Positions 10,114-20,692 of a DNA stretch of 64,000 nucleotides are shown piece by piece (position 1 is the first letter of the stretch; the number at the start of each line of letters is the position of its first letter). The notes under the pieces were generated by a model. It saw nothing but the letters and a program-made list of their open reading frames with translations. It was not told where the DNA came from and searched no databases. This DNA is from a virus (Duplodnaviria > Heunggongvirae > Uroviricota > Caudoviricetes): the IMG/VR virus record IMGVR_UViG_2795385694_000001. One strand, given 5' to 3'. Made by a program: the position numbers and the translations under genes.

Positions 10114-11153
10114 TCGATCACCTCAGTGAATGGCCCGAATCGCTCTTCGAGCAGACCCATGGAGCGCAAGGTGTACCACTCCTCGTCCCCAACCTTCGAC
10201 TTCCATGAACCTGAGACGAACTTGTACCGACGCCCTATTCGGCCATCTACAGGACTCCACACCGTTCCGTCTCTAGCCTCTTCACAATCCAGGCTCGGAA
10301 GTACACGGGGCTCAAGGATTTCGGTGTAGGGGGCATATGTGGGAGACGGGTTGCCGACAGCCCAAATGTCAGGACATTCGCGCCAGCGCCAGCCGTTCTG
10401 GTACTTCCATTCATCCCCGTCACGGTCCCGCCACCGCGATCCCTGCTCGTCTACCCCTAGACGGTCAACGACACGGGGTTTACGTCCGGTGGCGTCTTTG
10501 AATTTGACCCTCTGTTGATGGTCTGCCACGAAGTCGATTGCCGGTTCCTGTTGTGCCGTAACGTCAAAGTCAACCGAACTTTGACTTTCGTTGGACTTTC
10601 CCGGTTCCTGTTGTGCTGTTGGGTCGATTCGCTTGACCGGCCTGAACTGCTCAATGAACCGCTCGACAGGATCGTTGGCGCTGGACCATTCCCCGATCTC
10701 GTTCACCGAGGAACAGGTGTACAGGATTCGGTTTACGGTCTCTTCCCAATAGTCACGCTCCCGGAGCGCGCTATCTTCCGCCTTATCGAGGCGATCGATC
10801 TCCGCGTGTAGTTCATCGAGCGTCTTCCCTGTCGGGTCGTAGATGACAGGCCAAGAGTCTGCGTCGTCCGCATCGGTAGGTTCTTCTGCGAACAACTCCG
10901 AGTCGTACAGTGGCTTGTAGCTCCAATGGGGCGAGCCCCAGAATTTGTCTCGGTCGCCTTGGACCCGGATGGCTACAGCCTCCCCGTCTGGTCGTCGTGC
11001 GATGGTGCCAACAGGCGCACCCTCGGGGACGCTGTTAGCGGCAGCGATCATTGCGTCTACCTCGTAGAGGCCGATCACTTCATCGACATTGAACGATAGG
11101 TAGTCAGCCATCGCTTTCCTCTGCGCTTCAGACGGATTCAACACGTTCACCAA
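10110..11153 (-). CDS. hypothetical protein with internal TAQQEP repeat and a C-terminal SLDCxEARDGTVW domain
   Basis: ORF track; the C-terminal ~60 aa are paralogous to the C-terminus of the 37110..37577 product. Confidence 0.55.
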   Translation of the reverse strand: MVNVLNPSEAQRKAMADYLSFNVDEVIGLYEVDAMIAAANSVPEGAPVGTIARRPDGEAVAIRVQGDRDKFWGSPHWSYKPLYDSELFAEEPTDADDADSWPVIYDPTGKTLDELHAEIDRLDKAEDSALRERDYWEETVNRILYTCSSVNEIGEWSSANDPVERFIEQFRPVKRIDPTAQQEPGKSNESQSSVDFDVTAQQEPAIDFVADHQQRVKFKDATGRKPRVVDRLGVDEQGSRWRDRDGDEWKYQNGWRWRECPDIWAVGNPSPTYAPYTEILEPRVLPSLDCEEARDGTVWSPVDGRIGRRYKFVSGSWKSKVGDEEWYTLRSMGLLEERFGPFTEVIE

Positions 11154-11833
11154 CCAAACTCCTTTGGTACATAGACTTGGTTCTGCGGTCGGATGAAGTC
11201 CGAATCCGCTGGCGGTTGGTCAGATTCTGTGATGCGAATCAGCAGACGCCATCCACGTTCAGTAGCCTGCGACGCCTGGTGGATGTTCCACCAATCCCAT
11301 GAGTGCCAAACAGCCTCTTGCGCGACCAATTTCCGCAGGGTCGTGCAACCATCAATCCGGCGAGTTAATTCTGAGTAGAGCTGTTCGCCTTCGTCGTGCT
11401 TAATCGGCAGGTGCAGTAATCCATCAATGAACACAGTCGGGCAGTCGTTTCCAACGTGCAGCGTGTGGTAGCGCGGGTAATAGCCCTCAAGGGAACGGTA
11501 ATTCTGCAGCGGAAGGGACGGCGTGCCCCAATTCGCTGGGGTCACGGTCTCGTCTGCAGCGCTGTAGCGCGGCACACCATCGGTATGCCACCCGGGAATC
11601 GCAGGCCACCAACCAGGCATCAGCATAGAGACCTTAGTGTCCACGAAGATGTGCTTGTGGTCCCCCACAATTGGGGCTGACTGCAGGAGTCCGCGCAAGA
11701 GTGGACCTCCATAGAGCACAGCATTCGGCAGGCTCGCGCGGCGCAGGTTCGGTGTCCCCTCGATTAGCGCGTGGTCGGATTCCGCTCTGGGCCCGATCAC
11801 CACAGGGTTGCGGTTAAACCAGTAGGCGGTCAT
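11147..11833 (-). CDS. putative Fe(II)/2-oxoglutarate-dependent oxygenase (PhyH-like WHTD...H motif)
   Basis: GWHTDG then YHTLHVG motifs; start chosen at MTAYWF with ATGA overlap to Pth2. Confidence 0.4.
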   Translation of the reverse strand: MTAYWFNRNPVVIGPRAESDHALIEGTPNLRRASLPNAVLYGGPLLRGLLQSAPIVGDHKHIFVDTKVSMLMPGWWPAIPGWHTDGVPRYSAADETVTPANWGTPSLPLQNYRSLEGYYPRYHTLHVGNDCPTVFIDGLLHLPIKHDEGEQLYSELTRRIDGCTTLRKLVAQEAVWHSWDWWNIHQASQATERGWRLLIRITESDQPPADSDFIRPQNQVYVPKEFGW

Positions 11834-12183
11834 AGCAGTTTCAGCTCCCCTGTAATCGGCGCGAGTTCGTCGGCGGTCGCTGGGCCAATGGCACAACAGG
11901 TAGTTGTGAGCACGCCGTGGAACTCAGTCTGTCCGTTGTCGGTAATCAAAGAGTTCGGGATCCCGGCCTTAATTGCCTTATCCCACAGCTCAATCAGCGC
12001 ATCTTCACTCTCGACACGTACACATACCTTGGTGAAACTCCCCTGCAGCCACTCTTCAACGCGCGGATCCGAGAGGTATTCGAGCGTCGCAGCCAGCGAT
12101 GCATGTGCGCCCTGTGCGACCATCTTGCCTGCGCGCATACCAAGGTCTTTGCGCATGACGATCATTTGCTTCAGCTCACTCAT
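11830..12183 (-). CDS. pth2: peptidyl-tRNA hydrolase, PTH2 family
   Basis: KQMIVMRKDLGMRAGKMVAQGAHASL ... ITDNGQTEF...CAIGPATADELAPITGELKLL aligns along its length to archaeal/eukaryotic Pth2 (PTRH2). Confidence 0.85.
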   Translation of the reverse strand: MSELKQMIVMRKDLGMRAGKMVAQGAHASLAATLEYLSDPRVEEWLQGSFTKVCVRVESEDALIELWDKAIKAGIPNSLITDNGQTEFHGVLTTTCCAIGPATADELAPITGELKLL

Positions 12184-12299
12184 CGCCGTTCACTTCTCCC
12201 ATGGTCTGAGCGCCGTCATAGACGGTCACCGGGTCGTAGTCGCATGCCGAATCGCGGTACCCCTTGCCTGGGATCACCGGGTACTTCTCAAACCAGAAC

Positions 12300-12812
12300 T
12301 CACCGTGCAAGAGCGCACGGTCCAGTGTGTGGGTCGACGTGGTAACTGGCTGGTGGTGAACATAGCGGGCCGCTGTAGCCGAAATTGGTAACCGAGATCC
12401 CCGCGCGTTCTGCTCGCTTCATGCAATCCCAGGTACCGCGTGAATCCTTCAACGGGAAGGCGATACACGTATCGGCACCACGGTCGACCATCTCCTGGTT
12501 TCGCAGGTGCCCAGCGACCGGGCAATAGCGAGTACCGTTCTTCCACCGAACGGCATGAGTGCAGTGCTGGTCGCAGTCTCGGTACCAGTCCGCAGGAACG
12601 CCCTCGTTCATTACCGGAAGGCCCTTAGCCATCGCTTCGTCGGCCCACTGCGATGCGAACAGGTCAGCACCGCTCGGGCACTCCCCCTGCACCACAACGA
12701 GATCGCCCTGGCCGCGCTTCCCTGCAATCGCAAGCTGGGCATTCAGAGCGGAACGTACGAACTTACGGGACGGCCAGGCCCGACTACCTGTAACCAGAAC
12801 GCGGCGCGTCAT
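12300..12812 (-). CDS. SLOG/DUF2493 (YspA-like) protein; apparent frameshift near the 3' end
   Basis: VLVTGSRAW...VVQGECPSGADLFASQWA...PADW motifs; a coding-like frame continues to 12184. Confidence 0.6.
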   Translation of the reverse strand: MTRRVLVTGSRAWPSRKFVRSALNAQLAIAGKRGQGDLVVVQGECPSGADLFASQWADEAMAKGLPVMNEGVPADWYRDCDQHCTHAVRWKNGTRYCPVAGHLRNQEMVDRGADTCIAFPLKDSRGTWDCMKRAERAGISVTNFGYSGPLCSPPASYHVDPHTGPCALAR

Positions 12813-12979
12813 AGCAAGGCACCCACAACCGTCACCAATAGGCCGATCACCGCAACGACCATCGCAACCGGCAATAGTGTCAGCGGCAGGTCATAGACCA
12901 AACCCATGACGCACATTCCTGACGGAACCCCCACGAGTACGCCCGACCAGTATGGAACGAGAGGGTTCAATGCCCCCAC
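12809..12979 (-). CDS. small two-TM membrane protein
   Basis: Hydrophobic C-terminal half of the 12809..13219 ORF; GTG or ATG internal start; ATGA overlap with the downstream gene. Confidence 0.3.
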   Translation of the reverse strand: MGALNPLVPYWSGVLVGVPSGMCVMGLVYDLPLTLLPVAMVVAVIGLLVTVVGALL

Positions 12980-13073
12980 CTCAGCTCCATCAACACCGGG
13001 AAGATTAGGACCAGGATGACCACGAGCCCACCCATCGCCAGTGACACGTACCAAGCCCAATCGTCCAGGCGCT

Positions 13074-13373
13074 TCATAGCTTCTCCAGCTTGTAGGTTGA
13101 AAGAACTTTCCGGATCGCGCCTGGATAAGTCCACCCCTGTCCGGCCTCCTCTTCCACGGCGGCAATGAAGGCCTTCTCGACAGCCTCCTGCTCCTCAAGT
13201 GCCTGGTAAGTCTCAGCACGCTCTCCGAGCCATAGCGCGACCTCTCGGATTCGGTCCGTGCCTGGACTAGATGGGCCGGAAGAAATCCCGCGCCATATAA
13301 TGTCGCGCGCGAACAAAATCATTTCCGGCGTGACAGTCGGAATCCTCTCGAAGTCATAGGGATTCGATGTCAT
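13074..13373 (-). CDS. hypothetical protein
   Basis: ORF track; ATG 13373. Confidence 0.5.
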   Translation of the reverse strand: MTSNPYDFERIPTVTPEMILFARDIIWRGISSGPSSPGTDRIREVALWLGERAETYQALEEQEAVEKAFIAAVEEEAGQGWTYPGAIRKVLSTYKLEKL

Positions 13374-13484
13374 GCCTGACGCTCCATCTTGATGTTCTCA
13401 ATCAACTCCGCTACCGACGCTACGAAGTCAACCACGCTCAGGGCGACGATTGTGATGCTCAAGTACTTTCTGAATTCCTTCATA
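13372..13484 (-). CDS. 36-aa hydrophobic peptide
   Basis: MKEFRKYLSITIVALSVVDF...; preceded by an 11-aa leader ORF that starts in the ACCCACATGAACC motif. Confidence 0.25.
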
Positions 13485-13560
13485 TACCAATGCTATTGAG
13501 CGATTCGGGGTTCATGTGGGTACGAAAAATGCCCCCAGCTTTCGCTGAGGGCTCTTCGAG

Positions 13561-13631
13561 TAGTCCATGCGGGAATCAAACCCGCACCAACACCTTGAGA
13601 GGGTGGTGTGCTCTCACTACACCAATGGACC
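13561..13631 (-). tRNA. tRNA-Glu (anticodon CTC)
   Basis: Hand-folded cloverleaf: acceptor GGTCCAT/ATGGACT, T-arm GCGGG-TTTGATT-CCCGC, anticodon loop CTCTCAA. Confidence 0.6.
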
Positions 13632-13637
13632 TTAGGG

Positions 13638-13976
13638 CTATTGCTCAACCCACTTGCCGGATTCACGAACCTCTGTCTTGAGGTTAACCGGCCACATATC
13701 ACGCTCCACTTGGGCACGTTGTAGGTCTTCGCGGCCCACCTGACGTTTCACCCATAGCTGGAACTTTGGTGAGCTCACCATGCGCCTGAACGCGGCCTGC
13801 TTGTTCTGCAGCTGGCTACGCTCCTCGCGCGACTCACCCACCGCGCCAGAAGGCTCATGCGTAATCCGCACGCCCGTCTCGCGCTTGTTCTGGTTTTGAC
13901 CGCCTTTGCCCCCAGATCGGAATGTGTCCACACGACAATCCGAGAGGGTGACAGACAGTACCCGTTCTCTACTCAC
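13638..13976 (-). CDS. arfB: ArfB-like peptidyl-tRNA hydrolase (class I release-factor GGQ domain protein)
   Basis: FRSGGKGGQNQNKRETGVRITHEPSG ... ESREERSQLQNKQAAFRRM matches the GGQ catalytic domain of ArfB/ICT1 and RF1. Confidence 0.8.
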   Translation of the reverse strand: MSRERVLSVTLSDCRVDTFRSGGKGGQNQNKRETGVRITHEPSGAVGESREERSQLQNKQAAFRRMVSSPKFQLWVKRQVGREDLQRAQVERDMWPVNLKTEVRESGKWVEQ

Positions 13977-13977
13977 G

Positions 13978-14051
13978 TCAAGTCGACCGGATTTGAACCG
14001 GCGTCCCCCGCCGTGACAGGGCGGTGCTTTAGACCTCTAAGCTACGACTCG
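13978..14051 (-). tRNA. tRNA-Asp (GTC)
   Basis: Acceptor CGAGTCG/CGACTTG, D-stem GCTT/AAGC, anticodon arm CCGCC-CTGTCAC-GGCGG, T-arm GCCGG-TTCAAAT-CCGGT. Confidence 0.7.
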
Positions 14052-14302
14052 AAAGAACGTTTGCCCCCAGTGGTTTTCGAGGCCACTGGGGCAGGTACGA
14101 ACAACCTGAGCCAACTTTCTGGGAATCAAACCCTGGAGCTGCTTGGCCAAAACTCCCGTGGAGACGGTGCGAATTGAACGCGACCACACCAATCTTGCAA
14201 GGATCGGTCGCCACCTTGGAACATGCGCCCCCAAGGCCCCCGTTTTGACAAGACTGGGTCTGAACTTGGACGGTTACCTCAACGGAGCCGACAACCCTGT
14301 AG

Positions 14303-14376
14303 GGCCTCATCGAGGTCTCGAACCCCGCGCCTCTTCGTTACTAAGGAAGTGCTCTAGCCAGATGAGCTAATGAGGC
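14303..14376 (-). tRNA. tRNA, anticodon AGT (Thr?), with a C.C mismatch closing the anticodon stem
   Basis: Acceptor GCCTCAT/ATGAGGC, D-arm GCTC..GAGC, T-arm CGGGG-TTCGAGA-CCTCG. Confidence 0.55.
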
Positions 14377-14425
14377 CTGGTGCATAGGCGTTTTGAACAG
14401 GTGCCCTTGCAAGTGGCCTGTGGCG

Positions 14426-14493
14426 TACCCAGTCGAGGAATCGAACCCCGCTTGGCTGGATGTAAGCCAGCTTTCGTCCCAGACTAACCAGGC
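14426..14493 (-). tRNA. tRNA-Val (TAC), short D-arm
   Basis: Anticodon arm GCTGG-CTTACAT-CCAGC, T-arm CGGGG-TTCGATT-CCTCG, acceptor with G.U pairs; 68 nt. Confidence 0.5.
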
Positions 14494-14498
14494 ATGAG

Positions 14499-14573
14499 AA
14501 CGAGTGACCAGATTCGAACTGGCACGACCTGTTTGGAAGACAGGGATGCTAAACCGTTAAACATCACACTCGC
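14499..14573 (-). tRNA. tRNA-Gly (TCC)
   Basis: Acceptor GCGAGTG/CACTCGT, D-stem GATG/CATC, anticodon arm CCTGT-CTTCCAA-ACAGG, T-loop TTCGAAT. Confidence 0.7.
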
Positions 14574-14577
14574 ATGG

Positions 14578-14644
14578 AGCGGCAGAGGTGACTCGAACAC
14601 CCTTGCAGCGGCTTAGGAGGCCACGCACTTTCCGGAACTACCGC
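14578..14644 (-). tRNA. tRNA-Arg (CCT)?, degenerate D-arm
   Basis: Acceptor GCGGTAG/CTGCCGC, anticodon arm GTGGC-CTCCTAA-GCCGC, T-arm GGGTG-TTCGAGT-CACCT; only 67 nt. Confidence 0.45.
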
Positions 14645-14649
14645 TTGGT

Positions 14650-14719
14650 AGGTTCGCACAGAATTGAACTGTGATTGCCGACGTATCAGATCGGTGTCCT
14701 TACCGTTGGACGACGAACC
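14650..14719 (-). tRNA. tRNA-Ile (GAT)
   Basis: D-stem GTCC/GGAC, anticodon arm CCGAT-CTGATAC-GTCGG, T-arm CACAG-TTCAATT-CTGTG. Confidence 0.6.
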
Positions 14720-14721
14720 AG

Positions 14722-14793
14722 TGGGTCTGGTAGGACTCGAACCTACGTCTCCGACTTAAGAGGACGGAGCTAAACCATCTCAGCTACAAACCC
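14722..14793 (-). tRNA. tRNA-Lys (CTT)
   Basis: Acceptor GGGTTTG/CAGACCC, D-stem AGCT/AGCT, anticodon loop CTCTTAA, T-arm GTAGG-TTCGAGT-CCTAC. Confidence 0.65.
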
Positions 14794-14801
14794 ATTGTTG
14801 G

Positions 14802-14873
14802 TAGGGCGCAAGGGATTCGAACCCTCAACACGCGAGGTAAAAGCTCGGGGTGATTCCGTTTCACCAACGCCCA
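14802..14873 (-). tRNA. tRNA-Lys (TTT)
   Basis: D-stem GTGA/TCAC, anticodon arm CCGAG-CTTTTAC-CTCG, T-arm GAGGG-TTCGAAT-CCCTT. Confidence 0.6.
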
Positions 14874-14876
14874 ATA

Positions 14877-15047
14877 TCAATTCATTGCCGGAAACGCCTC
14901 CCACACATGCGGATAAGCAGCGCGGTATGCGTCGCGACTGGAGCGTGTAAGAATTGTCGTCGGCTTACACCCGACAACCACCAGCCCTTCCCTGCTCACC
15001 CTCTCCACCGCGAGCTCAGGAGTCATCCTCCTGCCGTACACAAACAT
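14877..15047 (-). CDS. small hypothetical protein embedded in the tRNA array
   Basis: The ORF 14877..15113 was trimmed to the first ATG that does not overlap the tRNA at 15085..15159; moderately GC3-rich. Confidence 0.3.
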   Translation of the reverse strand: MFVYGRRMTPELAVERVSREGLVVVGCKPTTILTRSSRDAYRAAYPHVWEAFPAMN

Positions 15048-15084
15048 CGTGCCGGTGGTCGTCTCGACATCGAATACTTTCACG

Positions 15085-15159
15085 TAGTCGGCGCGAGGAT
15101 CGAACTCGCACACACCGAGGTTTGAACTCGGCGGCTTTGCCAGGTTTGCCTAGCCGACC
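15085..15159 (-). tRNA. tRNA with anticodon CAA (Leu-type) but class I (short variable arm)
   Basis: Acceptor GGTCGGC/GCCGACT, anticodon arm CCGAG-TTCAAAC-CTCGG, T-arm GCGAG-TTCGATC-CTCGC. Confidence 0.5.
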
Positions 15160-15217
15160 ATGCTCAGCATTTAACCGACCCGAGGCGGTCGGCACCCGTG
15201 AGGGCTGTTTGAACCGG

Positions 15218-15291
15218 TACTCCAAGAGGGATTCGAACCCACAACCTCCAGGGTCTAAGCCTGTCGCCTCTGCCAGTTGGGCTATTGGAGC
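15218..15291 (-). tRNA. tRNA with anticodon TAG (reads CUA; Leu-type) but class I structure
   Basis: Acceptor GCTCCAA/TTGGAGT, anticodon loop CTTAGAC, T-arm GTGGG-TTCGAAT-CCCTC. Confidence 0.5.
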
Positions 15292-15348
15292 TTGGTGCCG
15301 ATATTGCCGCGTCGGCTTTACGGTGACTCCTACTCACCGAGCGCGTCG

Positions 15349-15420
15349 AGACGAGGGCCGGGATCGAACCGGCGTGGGTCAGGGTTGCAGCCTGCCAGCT
15401 AGCCACTCACTCACTTCGCC
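15349..15420 (-). tRNA. tRNA-Cys (GCA)?, D-arm unclear
   Basis: T-arm GCCGG-TTCGATC-CCGGC is perfect; anticodon arm CAGG-CTGCAAC-CCTG; acceptor has one A.C mismatch. Confidence 0.45.
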
Positions 15421-15428
15421 CTAAGCCG

Positions 15429-15593
15429 CTATTCTGCGGCGGGTGCTGCCTTCTTCGCGGGGGCCTTCTTGGCTACCGGCTTCTCTTCCACTGCGTAGTG
15501 GAAGTCCTCAAGGGCATCCATACGATCAATCAGGTCGTTTACCGCCTTGACGATGTCGATATGGGCGATGCCCGTGCGCAGCTTGTCAGTCAT
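15429..15593 (-). CDS. 54-aa protein with Lys/Ala-rich tail (MTDKLRTGIAHIDIVKAV...)
   Basis: ATG with AAAGG RBS at 6-nt spacing; lies between tRNAs; below the track cutoff. Confidence 0.4.
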   Translation of the reverse strand: MTDKLRTGIAHIDIVKAVNDLIDRMDALEDFHYAVEEKPVAKKAPAKKAAPAAE

Positions 15594-15616
15594 ATTGGCC
15601 TTTCGGTGTCTGTACG

Positions 15617-15687
15617 TCCCCGTGCGCGGAGTTGAACCGCGATAACCTCGGTCACAGCGAGGGGCTCTGCCATTGAGCTACACAAGG
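15617..15687 (-). tRNA. tRNA-His (GTG)
   Basis: Classic D-arm TAGCTCAATGGCAGAGC, anticodon arm CCTCG-CTGTGAC-CGAGG, T-arm CGCGG-TTCAACT-CCGCG. Confidence 0.7.
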
Positions 15688-15751
15688 TATGGCGCTGGCC
15701 AGAGCAGCATGGCATCTCTGTTCCTTCGGGCTTTGTACCGGCAGCGCTCAG

Positions 15752-15826
15752 ACCCGTTGACAGGATTCGAACCTGCATGCGTTGCGCCTTCGTAGGGCGG
15801 TGGGCGCTCCATTGCCCAACAACGGG
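15752..15826 (-). tRNA. tRNA-Arg (ACG)
   Basis: Acceptor CCCGTTG/CAACGGG, D-stem GGGC/GCCC, anticodon loop CTACGAA, T-arm GCAGG-TTCGAAT-CCTGT. Confidence 0.7.
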
Positions 15827-15905
15827 ATAGCCCGACTCTTTAACCTTCTCCGTGGGTTTCGGGACCAGACTAATTCTCCTGGGAGGTGCTGGCGAGCGGA
15901 CCCTG

Positions 15906-15980
15906 TGGCGGGTACCGGATTTGAACCGGTGGTCTCAAGGTTATGAGCCTTGCGAGATGGCCGAGCTTCTCTAACCCGCT
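15906..15980 (-). tRNA. tRNA-Met (CAT) (initiator, elongator or Ile-lysidine type not resolved)
   Basis: Anticodon arm CAAGG-CTCATAA-CCTTG is perfect; T-arm ACCGG-TTCAAAT-CCGGT. Confidence 0.65.
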
Positions 15981-16105
15981 ATGTATGGTGACTCATTCCG
16001 GCAGGACAGTTCGTCGCCTACCGTATCCGCGCGAGTCAACGCGACCTTTTACGTGGAGTGCCCAGCTTTTCACCAGTAGCTGTGGAACCTGGTTTCCCTT
16101 ACACG

Positions 16106-16179
16106 CCGACTCTCCCCGAATCGAACGGGGGCGCACCGGGCTTCAACCGGTCGCTCTTACCTAACTGAGCTAAGAGTCG
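16106..16179 (-). tRNA. tRNA-Phe (GAA)
   Basis: D-arm TAGCTCAGTTAGGTAAGAGC, anticodon arm ACCGG-TTGAAGC-CCGGT, T-arm CCCCG-TTCGATT-CGGGG, acceptor CGACTCT/AGAGTCG. Confidence 0.75.
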
Positions 16180-16473
16180 ATTGTTAGAGGCTGAGAGTAC
16201 ACCCGCTATCGAGAACCTTTCGCAGCATTATGGATTCGCTGCTTCTCCAGGCCATCCCTGACCTAGTTCTCACGCCTGGTCCGTTACCGTGAACCACTCG
16301 TTATGCCGAAAGCTACTCTGCGGCTTTCCCTTCGCGATGAGATGGCCGTCTCACTGCTGCAGTACTTGCCTACAAACCGCACTCACCTTGCGGGACTATT
16401 GTGCGGCCCAGATTCCCGAGGGTCTGGGATTAAGGCGCTTTTGCTCCTCGGCAGGGGAAGGACTTTTGCTTTT

Positions 16474-16545
16474 TATTGACGACGGGACTTGAACCCGCAC
16501 ATCCAGTTTCCAATAACTGGTGACCTACCGTTGGTCTACGCCATT
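16474..16545 (-). tRNA. tRNA with a non-standard 8-nt (or 6-nt) anticodon loop; identity unresolved
   Basis: D-arm GACC-AACGGTA-GGTC, T-arm GCGGG-TTCAAGT-CCCGT; anticodon region CCAGT-TATTGGAA-ACTGG. Confidence 0.45.
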
Positions 16546-16999
16546 CTCGCAGCGGAGAATGATTTGACTAGAGACGTGCTTCCCCATGAAGTTCCGAACC
16601 CTTTTGGGGCACAGAATGCTTCACGCCTCTCGTGCTTTCGCCTGGCGGGGCTAATTACACTCTCTCTCAACCGCATTGCGAGCCGTCGCCCGACGCGAGA
16701 TCAATCATGGAACACGCCCTTGCTTGCGAAGCTCGGACTCAGTTCCTTCCGCTCCACAGGGCGCTTGTTCGATAGCCTTTTCACACGCACGTACGTGATG
16801 GTGTCCTCAGCACTTTGCCGTTGGACGGGGCGTAACTCGCAACCTGGCAGCCATCTCTGACTGCTCAAGGATTGGATTGCATGGATTGCCCTTGCGGGTG
16901 GTGGGTTGTCACCCCACCTTTCACCACCTTGCGGTGGCTTATGGGCCATGCCCCGAATATCTTAACTATATCTCCCACAACGGAGTTCGTGTGGGTGAG

Positions 17000-17082
17000 C
17001 GGAGAGGCAGGTATTCGAAACCTACTGCGAACAGCGCTCCGGTTAGCAACCGGGCCTAGTCACCTAACTAGTTGCGCTCTCC
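17000..17082 (-). tRNA. tRNA-Ser (GCT), class II
   Basis: Acceptor GGAGAGC/CCTCTCC, anticodon loop TTGCTAA, variable stem-loop GCG-CTGTT-CGC, T-arm TAGGT-TTCGAAT-ACCTG. Confidence 0.6.
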
Positions 17083-17161
17083 ATGGTCCACCATTTCAGC
17101 ACCGACGCGATCTTCAGTGCACCTGTTCAGCCACCATTCAGGCAGGTGGAAGTCTTTAGAG

Positions 17162-17246
17162 CGGAAAGTCGAGGAATCGAACCCCCAGGACGCACTGCCT
17201 GCCCCGGTATTCGACGCCGGTTGCCGACCATTCAGCGGGACCTTCC
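17162..17246 (-). tRNA. tRNA-Ser (CGA), class II
   Basis: Acceptor GGAAGGT/ACTTTCC, anticodon loop GTCGAAT, long variable arm GCAGG..CCTG. Confidence 0.55.
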
Positions 17247-17328
17247 ATCGCCCCAGAATTCATGACGCAGCCTGGCGCACACTGCGGACAGCCAACTCAT
17301 GGCAGGTACCTACCGGTTGACCCAAATG

Positions 17329-17401
17329 CTGATGACCCTGGATTCGAACCAAGACCTACGTGGTTCAGAGCCACGTGTGCTGCCGGTTACACCAATCATC
17401 A
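17329..17401 (-). tRNA. tRNA-Gln (CTG)
   Basis: D-arm GTG-TAACCGGCAG-CAC, anticodon arm CGTGG-CTCTGAA-CCACG is perfect, T-arm CTTGG-TTCGAAT-CCAGG. Confidence 0.7.
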
Positions 17402-17480
17402 ATGCTGAGACTGGCCTTGCGGGCGGGGGAACGTTTCTGCTTGCCGCAAGCCTTCAGTTCGTTCCACACCAGTCTCATTG

Positions 17481-17557
17481 TCTCGCCGTCAGGAGTCGAA
17501 CCTGCACACCCGAAGGAGCAGATTTACAGTCTGCGTTGATCGCCTATTCGCGACGAG
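17481..17557 (-). tRNA. tRNA-Tyr (GTA)
   Basis: Anticodon arm GCAGA-CTGTAAA-TCTGC is perfect; extended variable region; T-arm GCAGG-TTCGACT-CCTG. Confidence 0.6.
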
Positions 17558-17609
17558 ATTGGAGCCAGTGCTCGGCTTCTCGCCGATTCGCATGCACACA
17601 CTGACATGG

Positions 17610-17682
17610 CTGGCTTGGAAGGATTCGAACCTACACCTCGCGAGTTAACAGCTCGCTGCTCTACCAATTGAGCTACAGGCCA
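17610..17682 (-). tRNA. tRNA-Asn (GTT)
   Basis: D-arm TAGCTCAATTGGTAGAGC, anticodon arm GCGAG-CTGTTAA-CTCGC, T-arm GTAGG-TTCGAAT-CCTTC. Confidence 0.7.
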
Positions 17683-17801
17683 AGAGCGAGGGTCGCCAGT
17701 GTCAGCGCGCTTTCCGACCTGTGCGACCCTCTTGCCCGTCCTGCTTAGAGATGAGACGGAGCCGAAAACACCCGTACGGTCATCATACGTGATGACCAAC
17801 G

Positions 17802-17876
17802 TCTGCCAGGCGCGATTTGAACACGCGATCTCCTGGACCCAAACCAGGCGGGATGGCCAAACTTCCCTACAAGCAG
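17802..17876 (-). tRNA. tRNA-Pro (TGG)
   Basis: Anticodon arm CCTGG-TTTGGGT-CCAGG is perfect; T-arm GCGTG-TTCAAAT-CGCGC. Confidence 0.6.
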
Positions 17877-18156
17877 ATGATGGACGACACGGCCCAGGTA
17901 CGGCACCTCAGGTCGGATCCTTTTTATCGGAACCTACTGCGGGATTACCCTGCCATCCATATGGCCACCGGCATCCCGATGGTCGCGCGGAGATGTCTCT
18001 CCACATTCCCCGTACGACCGACGCTTTCCTGGAGCTACCTGTACTTGCGCATGTGGTCTGACAGCCGGGGCCACACTGACTAACGAGGATGTTCTCCCTT
18101 TGCACTACCGGCAGCCTACGCCGCCAGTCGGGGCTCGAACCCGAATCTTCCTCTCG

Positions 18157-18510
18157 TGGAGCTGCCCGGAATTGAACCGGGATGTTACGTGACTTGTCAC
18201 AGTCTTCTACGTGCGTAGTCCACCGATTGGGTCGGTTGGGGTGGACGCCTGTCCGAATCGAGACCTCAGACTCTCGACCGATCTTCCAGCACAGTTTGTC
18301 GCCTGAGAGCTGGTCATTGCGAGTTCCCCGTATTCGCGACGGTGGATTGGTACACGGAACGGGTAAACCGTGGTACCCCACCGGACTACGCAGCTAGGGC
18401 GTAGTCGGACTGAGCAGAAGCTGCAGTTATTGTGGTTGCACTGTTACGGGCGTTGCGGGCCCGGCACGCTTCTCAGTAAGTTGACACGCAATCGAATACC
18501 TGTCAGCCCC
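18157..18510 (-). ncRNA. ssrA: tmRNA (ssrA), one-piece, mycobacterial type
   Basis: 5' GGGGCTGACAGG...GAAGCGTGCCGG...GCAACCACAATAACT then tag reading frame GCA GCT TCT GCT CAG TCC GAC TAC GCC CTA GCT GCG TAG (AASAQSDYALAA), 3' CCCGGTTCAATTCCGGGCAGCTCCA; this parallels the M. tuberculosis ssrA layout (tag ADSHQRDYALAA, as recalled). Confidence 0.85.
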
Positions 18511-18567
18511 ATTGAAGTATCTATATCTCTATGGAATTTTCAAATGTCATGCCACACAGAGGCATTG

Positions 18568-18638
18568 CACGGGCGGAGAGAATCGAACTCCCACTAACGG
18601 GTTTGGAATCCGTTGTCCTACCTTTGGACCACGCCCAT
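18568..18638 (-). tRNA. tRNA-Trp (CCA)
   Basis: D-stem GTCC/GGAC, anticodon loop TTCCAAA, T-arm GGGAG-TTCGATT-CTCTC. Confidence 0.6.
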
Positions 18639-18688
18639 ATCACCGGGATTTCCGGCTCCGGTAACCGGTGTGAACTAAGTCTACGGCC

Positions 18689-18702
18689 CACCCACATGAA
18701 CC
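18689..18702 (+). promoter_or_regulatory. representative copy of the recurring ACCCACATGAACC motif (see findings)
   Basis: CACCCACATGAACC between the terminator and the first gene of the tRNA array. Confidence 0.5.
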
Positions 18703-18710
18703 TCTAGCGA

Positions 18711-18748
18711 ATAAAAACGGGCCCCGATCCACTGAGGAACCGGGGCCC
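18711..18748 (-). terminator. rho-independent terminator for - strand transcription
   Basis: GGGCCCCG-(14-nt loop)-CGGGGCCC followed on the - strand by GTTTTTAT. Confidence 0.55.
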
Positions 18749-18768
18749 AACGTCGAGAAAGCCTACGC

Positions 18769-18948
18769 TTACTGCTTGGTTGGGAAGGTTCCGTCATCAG
18801 CCGGAATGGTGCCGTTCCACCATCCGTGAGCCTTCGCCTGTGACCACTTGTCGCGGTCAGCCGACCCATAGATGGCCTCGACCACCTGCGAGCGGAACAG
18901 GTCAGCCTGTGGAGTTCCCGCTACGGGCTTGTTGTTCTGATTCGCCAT
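18769..18948 (-). CDS. 59-aa hypothetical protein (MANQNNKPVAGTPQADLFRSQ...)
   Basis: ATG 18948; just below the 60-aa track cutoff; followed by the terminator. Confidence 0.4.
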   Translation of the reverse strand: MANQNNKPVAGTPQADLFRSQVVEAIYGSADRDKWSQAKAHGWWNGTIPADDGTFPTKQ

Positions 18949-19026
18949 GTGGTGAGTCCTTGCCTGAAAGTCTTTGATGCACAGACACTGTGCTTACATC
19001 TATATTCTAGCACGCGTTTGCTGTGA

Positions 19027-19344
19027 CTATTCCCGCCAGTTCCTTGACGTGGGATGTTTGACCTTCTTCTTCGCCTTCCCGCCTCGACGCTGATTGCAAA
19101 CCAGGTGGCAGGGAACGAGATTCGAAACGTCGTAGCAGAGTGGGTCATCCCAGGCGAGATCTTTCACGGGGATGATGTGGTCTACGGTCGCGCTCATCGG
19201 GTCAGGCCATTTGAGGCTCAGGTCAATGAACTCGTGGCATTCGTCGCAGATCTGGTTTGCACGTAGTACGCGGGCTTTCGCCTTATCGAACTTGACGCCA
19301 GTACGACCGAGAGAGCGCGGGCCGTTCTTCGATGAAGTCGGCAA
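19027..19344 (-). CDS. HNH endonuclease
   Basis: CDECHEF...HIIPV...NLVPCHLVCNQRRG is an HNH motif. Confidence 0.75.
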   Translation of the reverse strand: MPTSSKNGPRSLGRTGVKFDKAKARVLRANQICDECHEFIDLSLKWPDPMSATVDHIIPVKDLAWDDPLCYDVSNLVPCHLVCNQRRGGKAKKKVKHPTSRNWRE

Positions 19345-19365
19345 TGGGTTCCTCTACCCATTATC

Positions 19366-19599
19366 TCACGAGCTCTTGGCTTCGCTCTCTGCATCGCTGT
19401 AGCCCATGTCGTATCCCTCGTCATAACCGGCGTCATAGCCTCGGCGGTAGTCTGCATTGCTTCTTGAGTCGCCCAGTCTGTGTGCCAAATCTTCCCAGCG
19501 AAGCTGCTCTTCGTGCTCCAGTTCGTACCAGTACTTCGAGCCACATGGACGCCACAGGTCGTAAAGTTCAGCACCGGTCACTGTGGCAACCCAGCCCAT
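19366..19599 (-). CDS. hypothetical protein
   Basis: ORF track. Confidence 0.45.
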   Translation of the reverse strand: MGWVATVTGAELYDLWRPCGSKYWYELEHEEQLRWEDLAHRLGDSRSNADYRRGYDAGYDEGYDMGYSDAESEAKSS

Positions 19600-19913
19600 C
19601 CTTCAAGGCGTGCCAGTTGGCGCTCAAGCTCATCCAGGCTTGCGTTCTGGGCCTTGTTAGCACTCTTGGTGGTTGCCCCAAACCCGGCCTTCACGAGAGC
19701 CTCTGCGGCTTCCTTTGCGGACAATGGGCTAATTCGATACAACCCACTTACGACCTGCGCGTTCTTGAAGTTAGTGCGCCCATGCTTCTCGATGATCGCA
19801 GCCATCACATCGACGTCGGACACGTCCCCACCTACTTGGTGGGGACTGTCGGCATGACCGGCGTCGGCCAGCAGAGGAGCGCAATGCCCTTGTCCTTGGC
19901 GATGTCCAGACAC
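19578..19913 (-). CDS. hypothetical protein; possibly the frameshifted C-terminal part of the upstream SPFH gene
   Basis: Overlaps the 19832..20692 3' end by 82 nt in a different frame; coiled-coil-like tail. Confidence 0.35.
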   Translation of the reverse strand: MSGHRQGQGHCAPLLADAGHADSPHQVGGDVSDVDVMAAIIEKHGRTNFKNAQVVSGLYRISPLSAKEAAEALVKAGFGATTKSANKAQNASLDELERQLARLEGWAGLPQ

Positions 19914-20692
19914 TTGGAGACCAGCACGTTGGGGTCGCGTGATACGGAGCTTGACAGAATCTCATTTGCGCGGGCCTGGGCCTCGGCAGTCTTCTGGTCC
20001 TGCAGGGCCACCGAGGTGGCAGCGCGGGACTGGTTGATTTGATTGATCTTCTGTTCGGTGCCCTCGTCGTAGTCGATCGTCGGGACAGCTACGTCCAAGA
20101 TTTCGACTTGGGTGCCCACCTTGCTTGCAAGGATTTTGCGGGCCTGCTCCGACAGCTCTGGCAGTGGAGACTGGTCGAGATTCTTCGGGGCCAAAGGGTC
20201 GAACGTTGCGAACACCTCGTTCAATGCAACCTGCAGGTTTCGGGTGACCAGGTTGGTTCGAACGTTGTCGAATGTCTTGTACTGGACGAATAGCTCTGGC
20301 GTGGCTTCCTGCTTAATCTGCCAACGAACTGACACATCCGCGTCTGCAGTGGAAGAGTTACCTAGACGAACCTTGATGCGGTTATCACCCTTGTGCTGGT
20401 CGATCTGGATCGCCCCGTCCATCTCAGTGACGTTCGCCCACGGGGCCTTGAAGTGTAGGCCGTTGGACAGCGTTGAGCCATTCGGTCGCCCGAACGTGGT
20501 CTCGATACCAATCTGTCGAGTACCAACGGTGGTAATCGAAGCGAAGATACCGAAGATCAGCGCGAATACACCGGCACCGGCAGCGGTGAGGAGTGGGATG
20601 TATCGATCTTTGTGGGGCGCGATCGGAGTTGCAATAACGGCAATTCCGGCAACGATGAGCAGGATCAGGGTGATCCACATTGTGGGCGGCAT
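19832..20692 (-). CDS. SPFH/band-7 (prohibitin-like) membrane protein
   Basis: N-terminal TM segment then VGTRQIGIETTFGRPNG..GLHFKAPW...VSVRWQI typical of the SPFH domain. Confidence 0.7.
   Translation of the reverse strand: MPPTMWITLILLIVAGIAVIATPIAPHKDRYIPLLTAAGAGVFALIFGIFASITTVGTRQIGIETTFGRPNGSTLSNGLHFKAPWANVTEMDGAIQIDQHKGDNRIKVRLGNSSTADADVSVRWQIKQEATPELFVQYKTFDNVRTNLVTRNLQVALNEVFATFDPLAPKNLDQSPLPELSEQARKILASKVGTQVEILDVAVPTIDYDEGTEQKINQINQSRAATSVALQDQKTAEAQARANEILSSSVSRDPNVLVSKCLDIAKDKGIALLCWPTPVMPTVPTK

Follow-up and report, generated by a model that had tools for sequence, protein, structure and literature searches.

The viral sequence of IMG/VR record IMGVR_UViG_2795385694_000001 (Caudoviricetes; 64,000 nucleotides, here called the window) was found to carry, on the minus strand of interval 11830-18640, an array of transfer RNA (tRNA) genes together with a transfer-messenger RNA (tmRNA), a peptidyl-tRNA hydrolase of the Pth2 type and a small GGQ protein related to peptide chain release factors, here designated mini-RF. 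As judged from its sequence, the interval belongs to a temperate mycobacteriophage of cluster MabI (cluster M-like, with a serine integrase), integrated in a Mycobacteroides abscessus-type genome, and constitutes the translation-support region of that phage. We consider it rather probable that these genes serve as a toolbox that maintains translation during the lytic phase. The comparative data say that the parts are only loosely linked and are assembled differently by different phages, and that they do not constitute a fixed machine. The interest that remains resides in mini-RF, in its tRNA-punctuated gene and in a tRNA-Ser of the (8/4) type.

The closest relatives of the interval are three MabI prophages, prophiT49-2 (GenBank accession number OQ417962), prophi86-1 (MW584160) and prophiGD54-2 (MW584202), which share with it 96.3%, 94.4% and 86.3% nucleotide identity, respectively. 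Across window positions 1-25000 the identity with prophiT49-2 is 95.1% over 86% of the length, and a serine integrase is annotated beneath this match. The gene order of the window is the annotated order in these relatives, and the layout held in common runs from tRNA-Trp through tmRNA, tRNAs, GOLLD RNA, further tRNAs, tRNA-Asp, the RF-1 gene, tRNA-Glu and a DprA-like gene to the peptidyl-tRNA hydrolase. The GenBank records of the relatives name these genes "peptidyl tRNA hydrolase", "RF-1 peptide chain release factor" and tmRNA (with an identical tag), and list each tRNA. Because of this identity and shared annotation, the window was taken to be a further cluster MabI prophage. It differs from all three in the absence of RtcB and of one small membrane-protein gene, with about 650 bp of unique DNA at that place, and from prophiT49-2 in the absence of the tRNA-Ala and tRNA-Glu(TTC) of the latter, while it has the Pth2 gene that prophiGD54-2 lacks. 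With cluster M phages, for example Rey, the identity is about 78-83% and is confined to the tRNA genes. Phages of this cluster (Bongo, PegLeg and Rey) are reportedly long-tailed and temperate, with 21-24 tRNAs, tmRNA and RtcB.

A phage-borne translation-support block with all named parts on the minus strand, as proposed in a preliminary description of this DNA, was borne out: the tmRNA covariance model passes and ARAGORN agrees, the PTH2 family is matched over the full length of the hydrolase, and the GGQ domain is recognised by its Pfam family (Table 1). That description also held the combination to be undescribed, a statement that is wrong because the combination is both annotated, in prophiT49-2 and prophi86-1, and in print. 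An earlier survey reported that the tRNA arrays of a cluster M-like group (G1) and a cluster C group (G4) include genes for RF-1, Pth and tmRNA, which it called "related to ribosome rescue", and that 81% of arrays contain a structured RNA about 430 nt long (Morgado & Vicente 2018, PMC5966550). For prophiGD54-2, 21 tRNAs, a tmRNA and a release factor were described as "suggesting substantial translational reprogramming" (Dedrick et al. 2021, PMC8092301).

Mini-RF had been assigned to the ArfB/ICT1 type. Among NCBIfam models the ranking was RF2 (E 2e-19), RF1 (1e-17), PrfH (1e-14) and ArfB (1e-5); the ArfB model NF006718 reached 25.2 bits, with a cut-off of 100, and covered residues 6-40 only, and the PrfH model TIGR03072 reached 54.2 bits, with a cut-off of 166.65. 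A phmmer search of the PDB retrieved domain 3 of RF1 and RF2, followed by PrfH and then by C12orf65. The AlphaFold model, computed with 37 homologues (mean predicted local distance difference test score, pLDDT, 87.5), displays a GGQ sheet domain, a helix at residues 55-67, a long helix at 70-93 and a β-hairpin at 102-111. Used as a Foldseek query, it found ribosome-bound RF2 and RF1 first; PrfH came 32nd and mtRF-R 47th. No ArfB/ICT1 chain was present among the phmmer matches in the PDB (E<=0.01) or among the top 50 Foldseek matches. The C-terminal tail has a net charge of +2 (family mean +0.4, range -3 to +4); for the tail of E. coli ArfB we take the value to be +13. Across clusters the C-terminal part is conserved, W75 and W109 being invariant and P96 nearly so in the 37 homologues. 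Membership in ArfB/ICT1 was rejected on the grounds of the sub-cut-off profile score, the lack of an ArfB match in fold or sequence and the lack of a basic tail. Mini-RF does resemble ArfB (YaeJ) and ICT1 in its small size, its catalytic GGQ domain, the lack of a domain that reads stop codons and the role proposed for it, codon-independent release on stalled ribosomes, but it differs from them in having neither the flexible linker nor the basic C-terminal tail, the model placing a structured helix and a β-hairpin there instead. We read mini-RF as derived from RF1/RF2, of which it would retain domain 3 together with the helix that connects it and the initial strands of the domain that follows.

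The family to which mini-RF belongs is large. Its full length (residues 1-112) matches phrog_3122, "RF-1 domain peptide chain release factor", with an E value of 1.1e-59, and this family is annotated "RF-1 peptide chain release factor" in more than 200 mycobacteriophage records. Homologues numbered 1638, and the best 120 of these 1638 are 97-142 residues long, mostly 105-130. The phage mini-RF family is not covered by a survey of release-factor evolution (Burroughs & Aravind 2019), and experimental work on phage mini-RFs was not found in the literature searched. An S4-like or other small RNA-binding partner, comparable to MTRES1 of mtRF-R, was considered and rejected, since the candidate, gp128 of phage EniyanLRS, annotated as "RNA binding protein", has no Pfam match; no homologue of gp128 was detected in the window, and none adjoins the GGQ gene at the other loci.

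The mini-RF gene is wedged between two tRNA genes. Its GTG start at 13976 follows the discriminator of tRNA-Asp (A13978) and a single C (C13977), and its TAG stop, with an in-frame TAA after it, stands 6 nt before tRNA-Glu(CTC). There is no space for a ribosome-binding site upstream of the GTG, and a start farther downstream is excluded, because residues 9-14 are invariant (V9, D13 and C14) or nearly so (T10) in the 37 homologues. The same flush tRNA-ORF-tRNA-Glu(CTC) arrangement, in which ORF denotes an open reading frame, was found in prophi86-1 and prophiGD54-2. It recurs on the metagenomic phage contig L006 (9925-10401), in which the GGQ ORF is flush after a tRNA-Gln and tRNA-Glu(CTC) overlaps its last 15 nt (five codons). 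A second metagenomic phage contig, L012 (1412-1886), probably shares the arrangement; there the called GGQ start lies 15 nt after tRNA-Gln and tRNA-Glu(CTC) again overlaps the last 15 nt. In both contigs, cleavage by RNase P at tRNA-Glu would strip the GGQ ORF of its stop codon. The flush placement thus suggests that tRNA processing would free a leaderless GUG message, or one with a 1-nt leader. Mycobacteria translate leaderless AUG and GUG mRNAs efficiently. By analogy, the gene may be said to be packaged like a tRNA-punctuated message of mitochondria.

The GGQ homologues in the phage collection amount to 280 records, 208 of them from Mycobacterium phages, and 60 of the 280 were listed. Among the matches listed, the family occurs in mycobacteriophage lineages rich in tRNAs and tmRNA, in cluster C, in cluster V, in MabI and in some cluster M phages. 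The gene content of the loci compared varies. Prophi86-1 and prophiT49-2 have tmRNA, GGQ, Pth2 and RtcB; prophiGD54-2 has tmRNA, GGQ and RtcB and lacks Pth2; and the window has tmRNA, GGQ and Pth2 and lacks RtcB. The array of Rey is laid out like that of the window and includes GOLLD and the (8/4) tRNA-Ser element; Rey also has tmRNA and RtcB, but GGQ and Pth2 genes are not annotated in its array region. EniyanLRS (cluster V) combines an array, a tmRNA and a SLOG protein with the GGQ gene. In Cali (cluster C) and related contigs the GGQ gene is placed amid replication genes, and in Nanosmite (cluster M) it lies in a protein operon near the integrase. WXIN has both Pth2 and GGQ, more than 12 kb apart, with Pth2 near a polynucleotide kinase/phosphatase. 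On a 69-kb metagenomic phage contig (L014, 1027-1863) a PTH2 gene is directly upstream of the GGQ gene with a gap of 121 nt, and there are no tRNAs within 1.5 kb. On L006 an array of 21 tRNAs encloses the GGQ gene, and genes for a PF09414 RNA ligase and a SLOG protein are nearby. The GGQ gene is thus close to RtcB in the MabI relatives and to a different RNA ligase in L006. The recurring theme is co-occurrence with many tRNAs, with tmRNA and with RNA-repair genes; physical linkage is not conserved.

The coordinated unit envisaged in the preliminary description does not hold on this comparison, for the parts are inherited independently, as the missing Pth2 of prophiGD54-2 and the missing RtcB of the window illustrate. 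Such independent presence and absence across related phages could also be taken to mean that the genes are mosaic cargo without a joint function, the tRNAs serving codon supply and tmRNA, mini-RF and Pth2 being independent accessories in a permissive region shuffled by HNH endonucleases. The RtcB site of the window, where about 790 bp have been replaced, and the HNH endonuclease genes that flank or interrupt the arrays (identified by Pfam among the proteins of the window and by annotation in the relatives) agree with this view. It was nevertheless judged improbable, and less likely than a toolbox for translation, because the accessory genes all act on stalled ribosomes or peptidyl-tRNA, because the GGQ family, among the matches listed, is concentrated in phages with many tRNAs and tmRNA, and because the flush tRNA-ORF-tRNA arrangement has been kept in two lineages. 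The adjacency of Pth2 and GGQ in L014 likewise favours a functional link.

Pth2 of the window is of the archaeal/eukaryotic type. Besides its Pfam match, it scored 98.1 bits with TIGR00283 (cut-off 82) and 109.5 bits with NF003314, under the cut-off of 126 of that model. It has the same length as archaeal and eukaryotic Pth2 proteins of family PF01981 (2zv3, 1wn2, 1xty and human Bit1, 1q7s), and it aligns end to end with the archaeal structures 2zv3, 1wn2 and 1xty; it differs from this group in being encoded by a bacterial phage. In the alignment with 1xty its K20, D82 and T86 coincide with the GK and D-x-G-x-T motifs, and we take them to be the equivalents of catalytic K18, D86 and T90 of S. 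solfataricus Pth2. The peptidyl-tRNA hydrolase of the bacterial host itself is of the unrelated Pth1 type. Homologues of the phage Pth2 were found in 40 records of the phage collection, where they are already annotated. At 11147-11896, also on the minus strand, a 249-residue protein of phrog_1843, labelled "oxidoreductase" in prophiT49-2 and without a Pfam match, contains an H-x-D motif (HTDG) and may therefore be an oxygenase of the 2-oxoglutarate/Fe(II) type with RNA or protein as its substrate.

Where the three MabI relatives have RtcB and two small membrane-protein genes, the window has mostly unrelated DNA, of which only 12964-13097 (134 bp, a remnant of a membrane-protein gene) is common to them. 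RtcB and one small membrane-protein gene of all three relatives have thus been replaced; a tblastn search of the window with RtcB of prophi86-1 gave a best E value of 3.1, and, apart from the 134-bp remnant, the replacing DNA matched nothing in the phage collection. Two ORFs there, 13074-13373 (99 residues) and 12809-13219 (136 residues), had no family matches, and the 99-residue ORF had no protein match either. The neighbouring gene encodes a SLOG/YAcAr protein, called DprA-like in the relatives. Such proteins were observed near a GGQ or RNA-ligase gene in MabI, cluster V, cluster M (Nanosmite) and metagenomic phage (L004 6270-6707, L006 240-704, L011 1-209), and this one may take part, as a functional partner, in repairing RNA or supporting translation.

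The proximity of GGQ and RNA-ligase genes raises the possibility of a rescue-and-repair kit directed against host defence, that is, against RNase or tRNA-modifying toxins and abortive infection (nucleases of the VapC/MazF type, MenT nucleotidyltransferases, TacT-type acetyltransferases, anticodon nucleases). In such a kit damaged tRNAs would be replaced from a spare set, mini-RF would, like PrfH, release jammed ribosomes, RtcB would religate cut RNA and Pth2 would strip blocked aminoacyl-tRNAs. In the three MabI relatives the order GGQ, tRNA-Glu, (small genes), RtcB, SLOG echoes, by analogy, the rescue-then-repair operon PrfH-RtcB2 (Burroughs & Aravind 2019), in which a GGQ protein derived from a release factor is likewise encoded near an RtcB ligase, and PrfH is among the fold and sequence matches of mini-RF. 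L006 pairs its GGQ array with the PF09414 ligase and the SLOG protein, and the polynucleotide kinase/phosphatase near Pth2 of WXIN points in the same direction. A study of MenT toxins, which cites work on a tRNA-acetylating toxin and its detoxifying enzyme in Mycobacterium tuberculosis, suggests tRNAs encoded by phages as possible targets of some MenT toxins, in defence against phages. On the other hand, the window lacks RtcB altogether, so that the repair arm is dispensable here, and in the three relatives RtcB is at least two genes away from the GGQ gene. PrfH is a protein of about 200 residues with a decoding-like domain, which mini-RF, with 112 residues and a score far under the PrfH cut-off, does not have, and in cluster C the GGQ gene is in a replication module, far from any ligase. 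The counter-defence explanation, which overlaps that of a toolbox for translation and is weakened in the window by the loss of RtcB, is therefore held as a possibility with the balance of the evidence on the other side. A related and equally tentative proposal is that mini-RF, with its domain 3, long helix and Trp-rich hairpin, might represent a new class of stand-alone, codon-independent rescue factor, apart from ArfB, ICT1, PrfH and mtRF-R, made from a leaderless mRNA cut from the tRNA array, and that together with Pth2, tmRNA and, in the relatives, RtcB it might restart ribosomes jammed by RNA-targeting defences of the host.

The array itself comprises 20 canonical tRNAs covering 18 amino acids, and with the (8/4) tRNA-Ser and an odd tRNA(tg) embedded in GOLLD the tRNA-like genes found by ARAGORN and Rfam number 22, instead of the approximately 24 tRNAs first counted. 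No tRNA-Ala was detected in the array by ARAGORN or by a permissive Rfam scan. Under strict wobble rules the 20 canonical tRNAs read 61% of late-gene codons and 66% of early-gene codons, and with superwobble at U34 the value rises to 79%. With such partial coverage the phage would still depend on host tRNAs, and the term near-complete, used for this set at the outset, is an overstatement. A three-way rescue unit, made of an ArfB/ICT1-type factor, tmRNA and Pth2 beside a near-complete tRNA set and not described before, is consequently very improbable. The GGQ motif, tmRNA and Pth2 do occur within 6.8 kb on one strand, but the features that define ArfB are absent, the combination is published and annotated in relatives, the tRNA set lacks Ala and the parts are not inherited together.

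The (8/4) tRNA-Ser, at 17162-17247 within the flagged interval, had been overlooked. The sequence is predicted to fold into a cloverleaf whose acceptor, D and T stems have 8, 5 and 4 bp, respectively; the D loop has 4 nt, the variable arm is long and the discriminator is G73. In an alignment of only four copies, 99% of cells were paired and four pairs were changed on both sides, with slid controls at no more than 59%; the covariation count backs all five helices, and both the acceptor stem and the variable arm show compensatory changes. Three of the four sequences have G as the discriminator and the fourth has U. The anticodon, CGA, stands in a loop of sequence G-U-CGA-A-U, and C31 and A39 are mismatched. 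The counterpart in Rey (L003 7472-7556) is 85% identical across 88 nt; the 42-residue hypothetical protein gp113 annotated on that stretch of Rey is probably a mis-annotation. The gene is also homologous to the annotated tRNA-Ser(cga) of EniyanLRS. The tRNA-Sec reading was rejected, as the gene scores below threshold with the Rfam tRNA-Sec model and has CGA instead of UCA as its anticodon. A tRNA-Ser of the (8/4) type (allo-tRNA) has been reported in phages (Mukai et al. 2017). On its predicted cloverleaf the gene at 17162-17247 is of this type, and its product would be expected to be serylated and to decode UCG.

The tmRNA has an acceptor stem GGGGCUG/CAGCUCC that includes a G3-U70 pair and a normal T arm, GGUUCAAUUCC, and CCA is not encoded. 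Its tag reading frame, GCA GCU UCU GCU CAG UCC GAC UAC GCC CUA GCU GCG UAG, is intact and specifies AASAQSDYALAA, then the stop; this host-like tag of 12 residues is identical in prophiT49-2, prophi86-1 and prophiGD54-2. The tmRNA annotated in EniyanLRS (L004 911-1325) has an unusually long tag, AVDTDVDFAMWEAELASDLVAA, unlike the 12-residue tags of MabI. A tblastn search of the window for smpB with an approximate E. coli SmpB query gave a best E value of 4.4, which is a weak negative; as no smpB-like sequence was detected, the phage tmRNA would need SmpB of the host.

The RNA genes extend over 13560-18638, all on the minus strand, from tRNA-Trp as the first to tRNA-Glu as the last, and in this region ARAGORN called 22 genes: the 20 canonical tRNAs, one odd tRNA-???(tg) and the tmRNA. 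A terminator-like hairpin upstream of tRNA-Trp is the putative upstream boundary of the transcription unit, and another, directly 3' of tRNA-Glu, its putative end. Both rank among the strongest such hairpins in 11000-20000 and stand exactly at the array ends, yet they are only suggestive as boundaries, because the scan as a whole was not enriched over shuffled sequences. A weak promoter-like site was seen by pattern scan at 18543-18516, before the tmRNA. The Pth2 gene lies about 1.35 kb beyond the array with the second hairpin in between, and it would therefore fall in a separate transcript, that of a protein operon downstream of the array which also includes the SLOG/YAcAr gene. Small ORFs of unassigned function occur among the tRNAs, for example 15429-15593 and 14877-15113, and of the protein genes inside the array only that of mini-RF encodes a recognisable domain.

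Table 1 Features of the translation-support region, in the order of transcription of the minus strand.
Feature	Position	Strand	Evidence and remarks
Terminator-like hairpin	18718-18749	-	13 bp then TTTTTATT; between upstream ORF 18769-18948 and tRNA-Trp; pattern scan
tRNA-Trp(CCA)	18567-18638	-	ARAGORN and Rfam
tmRNA	18154-18510	-	Rfam RF00023, 82 bits (gathering score 47), E 3e-30; ARAGORN 18156-18510
tRNA-Pro(TGG)	17801-17876	-	ARAGORN, Rfam
tRNA-Asn(GTT)	17607-17682	-	ARAGORN, Rfam
tRNA-Tyr(GTA)	17480-17557	-	ARAGORN, Rfam
tRNA-Gln(CTG)	17328-17401	-	ARAGORN, Rfam
(8/4) tRNA-Ser(CGA)-like gene	17162-17247	-	Not annotated; Rfam tRNA-Sec model 28.5 bits, E 0.019, under gathering score
GOLLD RNA core	16188-16631	-	Rfam RF02032, 195.7 bits (gathering score 150), E 1.2e-53, model positions 1-416
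tRNA-like module in GOLLD linker	16474-16545	-	ARAGORN tRNA-???(tg), Rfam; anticodon loop non-canonical (6 or 8 nt)
14 tRNAs: Phe, Met, Arg(ACG), His, Cys, Leu(TAG), Leu(CAA), Lys(TTT), Lys(CTT), Ile, Gly(TCC), Val(TAC), Thr(AGT), Asp	within 13977-16179	-	ARAGORN, Rfam
Mini-RF, 112-residue GGQ protein	13638-13976	-	Pfam RF-1 PF00472, E 1e-18, residues 8-69; GGQ at residues 25-27
tRNA-Glu(CTC)	13560-13631	-	ARAGORN and Rfam
Terminator-like hairpin	13531-13552	-	9 bp then ATTTTTCG; pattern scan
Segment at the site of RtcB and two small membrane-protein genes of the relatives	12597-13382	-	About 790 bp
SLOG/YAcAr protein	12300-12812	-	Pfam PF10686, E 2.5e-10
Pth2, 117 residues	11830-12183	-	Pfam PF01981, E 5e-32, full length, 110.9 bits (cut-off 23)

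Taken as a toolbox for maintaining translation, the region would operate as follows. During lytic growth the array would be transcribed and cut by the tRNA-processing enzymes of the host, which would also release the mini-RF message. The phage has a G+C content of 57.7% and its host one of about 64%, and the phage tRNAs would top up or replace those of the host for this different composition. The tmRNA, with SmpB of the host, would rescue non-stop ribosomes and append the host-type degron ...DYALAA, mini-RF would hydrolyse peptidyl-tRNA on stalled ribosomes without reading a codon, and Pth2 would recycle peptidyl-tRNA that has left the ribosome and possibly N-blocked aminoacyl-tRNA. The joint outcome would be that ribosomes and tRNAs stay available to the phage.

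Several observations weigh against this explanation. The modules are not co-inherited, and a coordinated function is thus a matter of inference; no conserved partner gene adjoins the GGQ gene across the loci compared. Mini-RF is devoid of both a decoding domain and a basic tail by which it might find stalled ribosomes. The tRNA set, with its codon coverage of 61-79%, is not self-sufficient, and tRNA-Ala is missing even though Ala and Ser account for about 18% of late-gene residues. Pth2 is located beyond the putative array transcript, and the limits of that transcript rest on a pattern scan whose site count was not above the shuffled expectation. Last, expression data for MabI prophages were not found in the literature searched.

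The second element overlooked within the flagged interval is the GOLLD RNA. The same RF02032 match was obtained in prophi86-1, prophiT49-2 and Rey, in none of which GOLLD is annotated. Its 5' domain probably extends to about 16960-17160, as suggested by a weak homology of this extension to the region upstream of the GOLLD match in Rey; the records of the relatives have no coding sequences there. A protein gene in the gap of about 700 nt (16632-17327) was considered and rejected, as the sole ORF, 16701-16949, is annotated in no relative and the stretch partly matches the GOLLD-upstream region of Rey. The tRNA-like module in the GOLLD linker is labelled tRNA-Gln(ttg) or tRNA-?(tg) in databases, and its anticodon arm is identical in three prophages. 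It agrees with the pseudo-tRNA published inside mycobacterial GOLLD genes, which are found within tRNA clusters (Behra et al. 2019). A 14-mer cage has been seen by cryo-electron microscopy for a homo-oligomeric GOLLD nanocage (GOLLD env-38), and tRNAs in the linker were noted (Kretsch et al. 2025). The GOLLD of the window, known here from its sequence, has no notable difference from those of Mycobacterium tRNA arrays, with a full-length Rfam match in a phage tRNA island and a tRNA-like insert in the linker; the cage is that of env-38.

The expression of one such array bears on a further explanation, namely that the prophage array and rescue genes are expressed in the lysogen under stress (stationary phase, ribosome-targeting antibiotics) and raise the tolerance of the host, a benefit that has been put forward for long tRNA arrays of other bacteria. 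In the chromosomal cluster of 32 tRNAs of M. aubagnense the expression of GOLLD was low and increased twofold in stationary phase (Behra et al. 2019), and a cyanobacterial tRNA array was reportedly tied to survival under translational stress (PMC8421152). For prophiGD54-2, however, Dedrick et al. (2021) predicted the equivalent genes to be early lytic. We consider it distinctly unlikely that the lysogen benefits, and less likely than a use of these genes for translation in the lytic phase.

The island as such adds little to what is known, since near-identical prophages have it annotated and the literature has drawn attention to its rescue genes. Mini-RF belongs to a large family, with more than 200 mycobacteriophage records and more than 1600 homologues, and this family is not ArfB. 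Phages of M. abscessus are in therapeutic use. The practical value of the region would lie in whether islands of this kind help phages to beat defences that target tRNAs or ribosomes, or alter the stress tolerance of lysogens.

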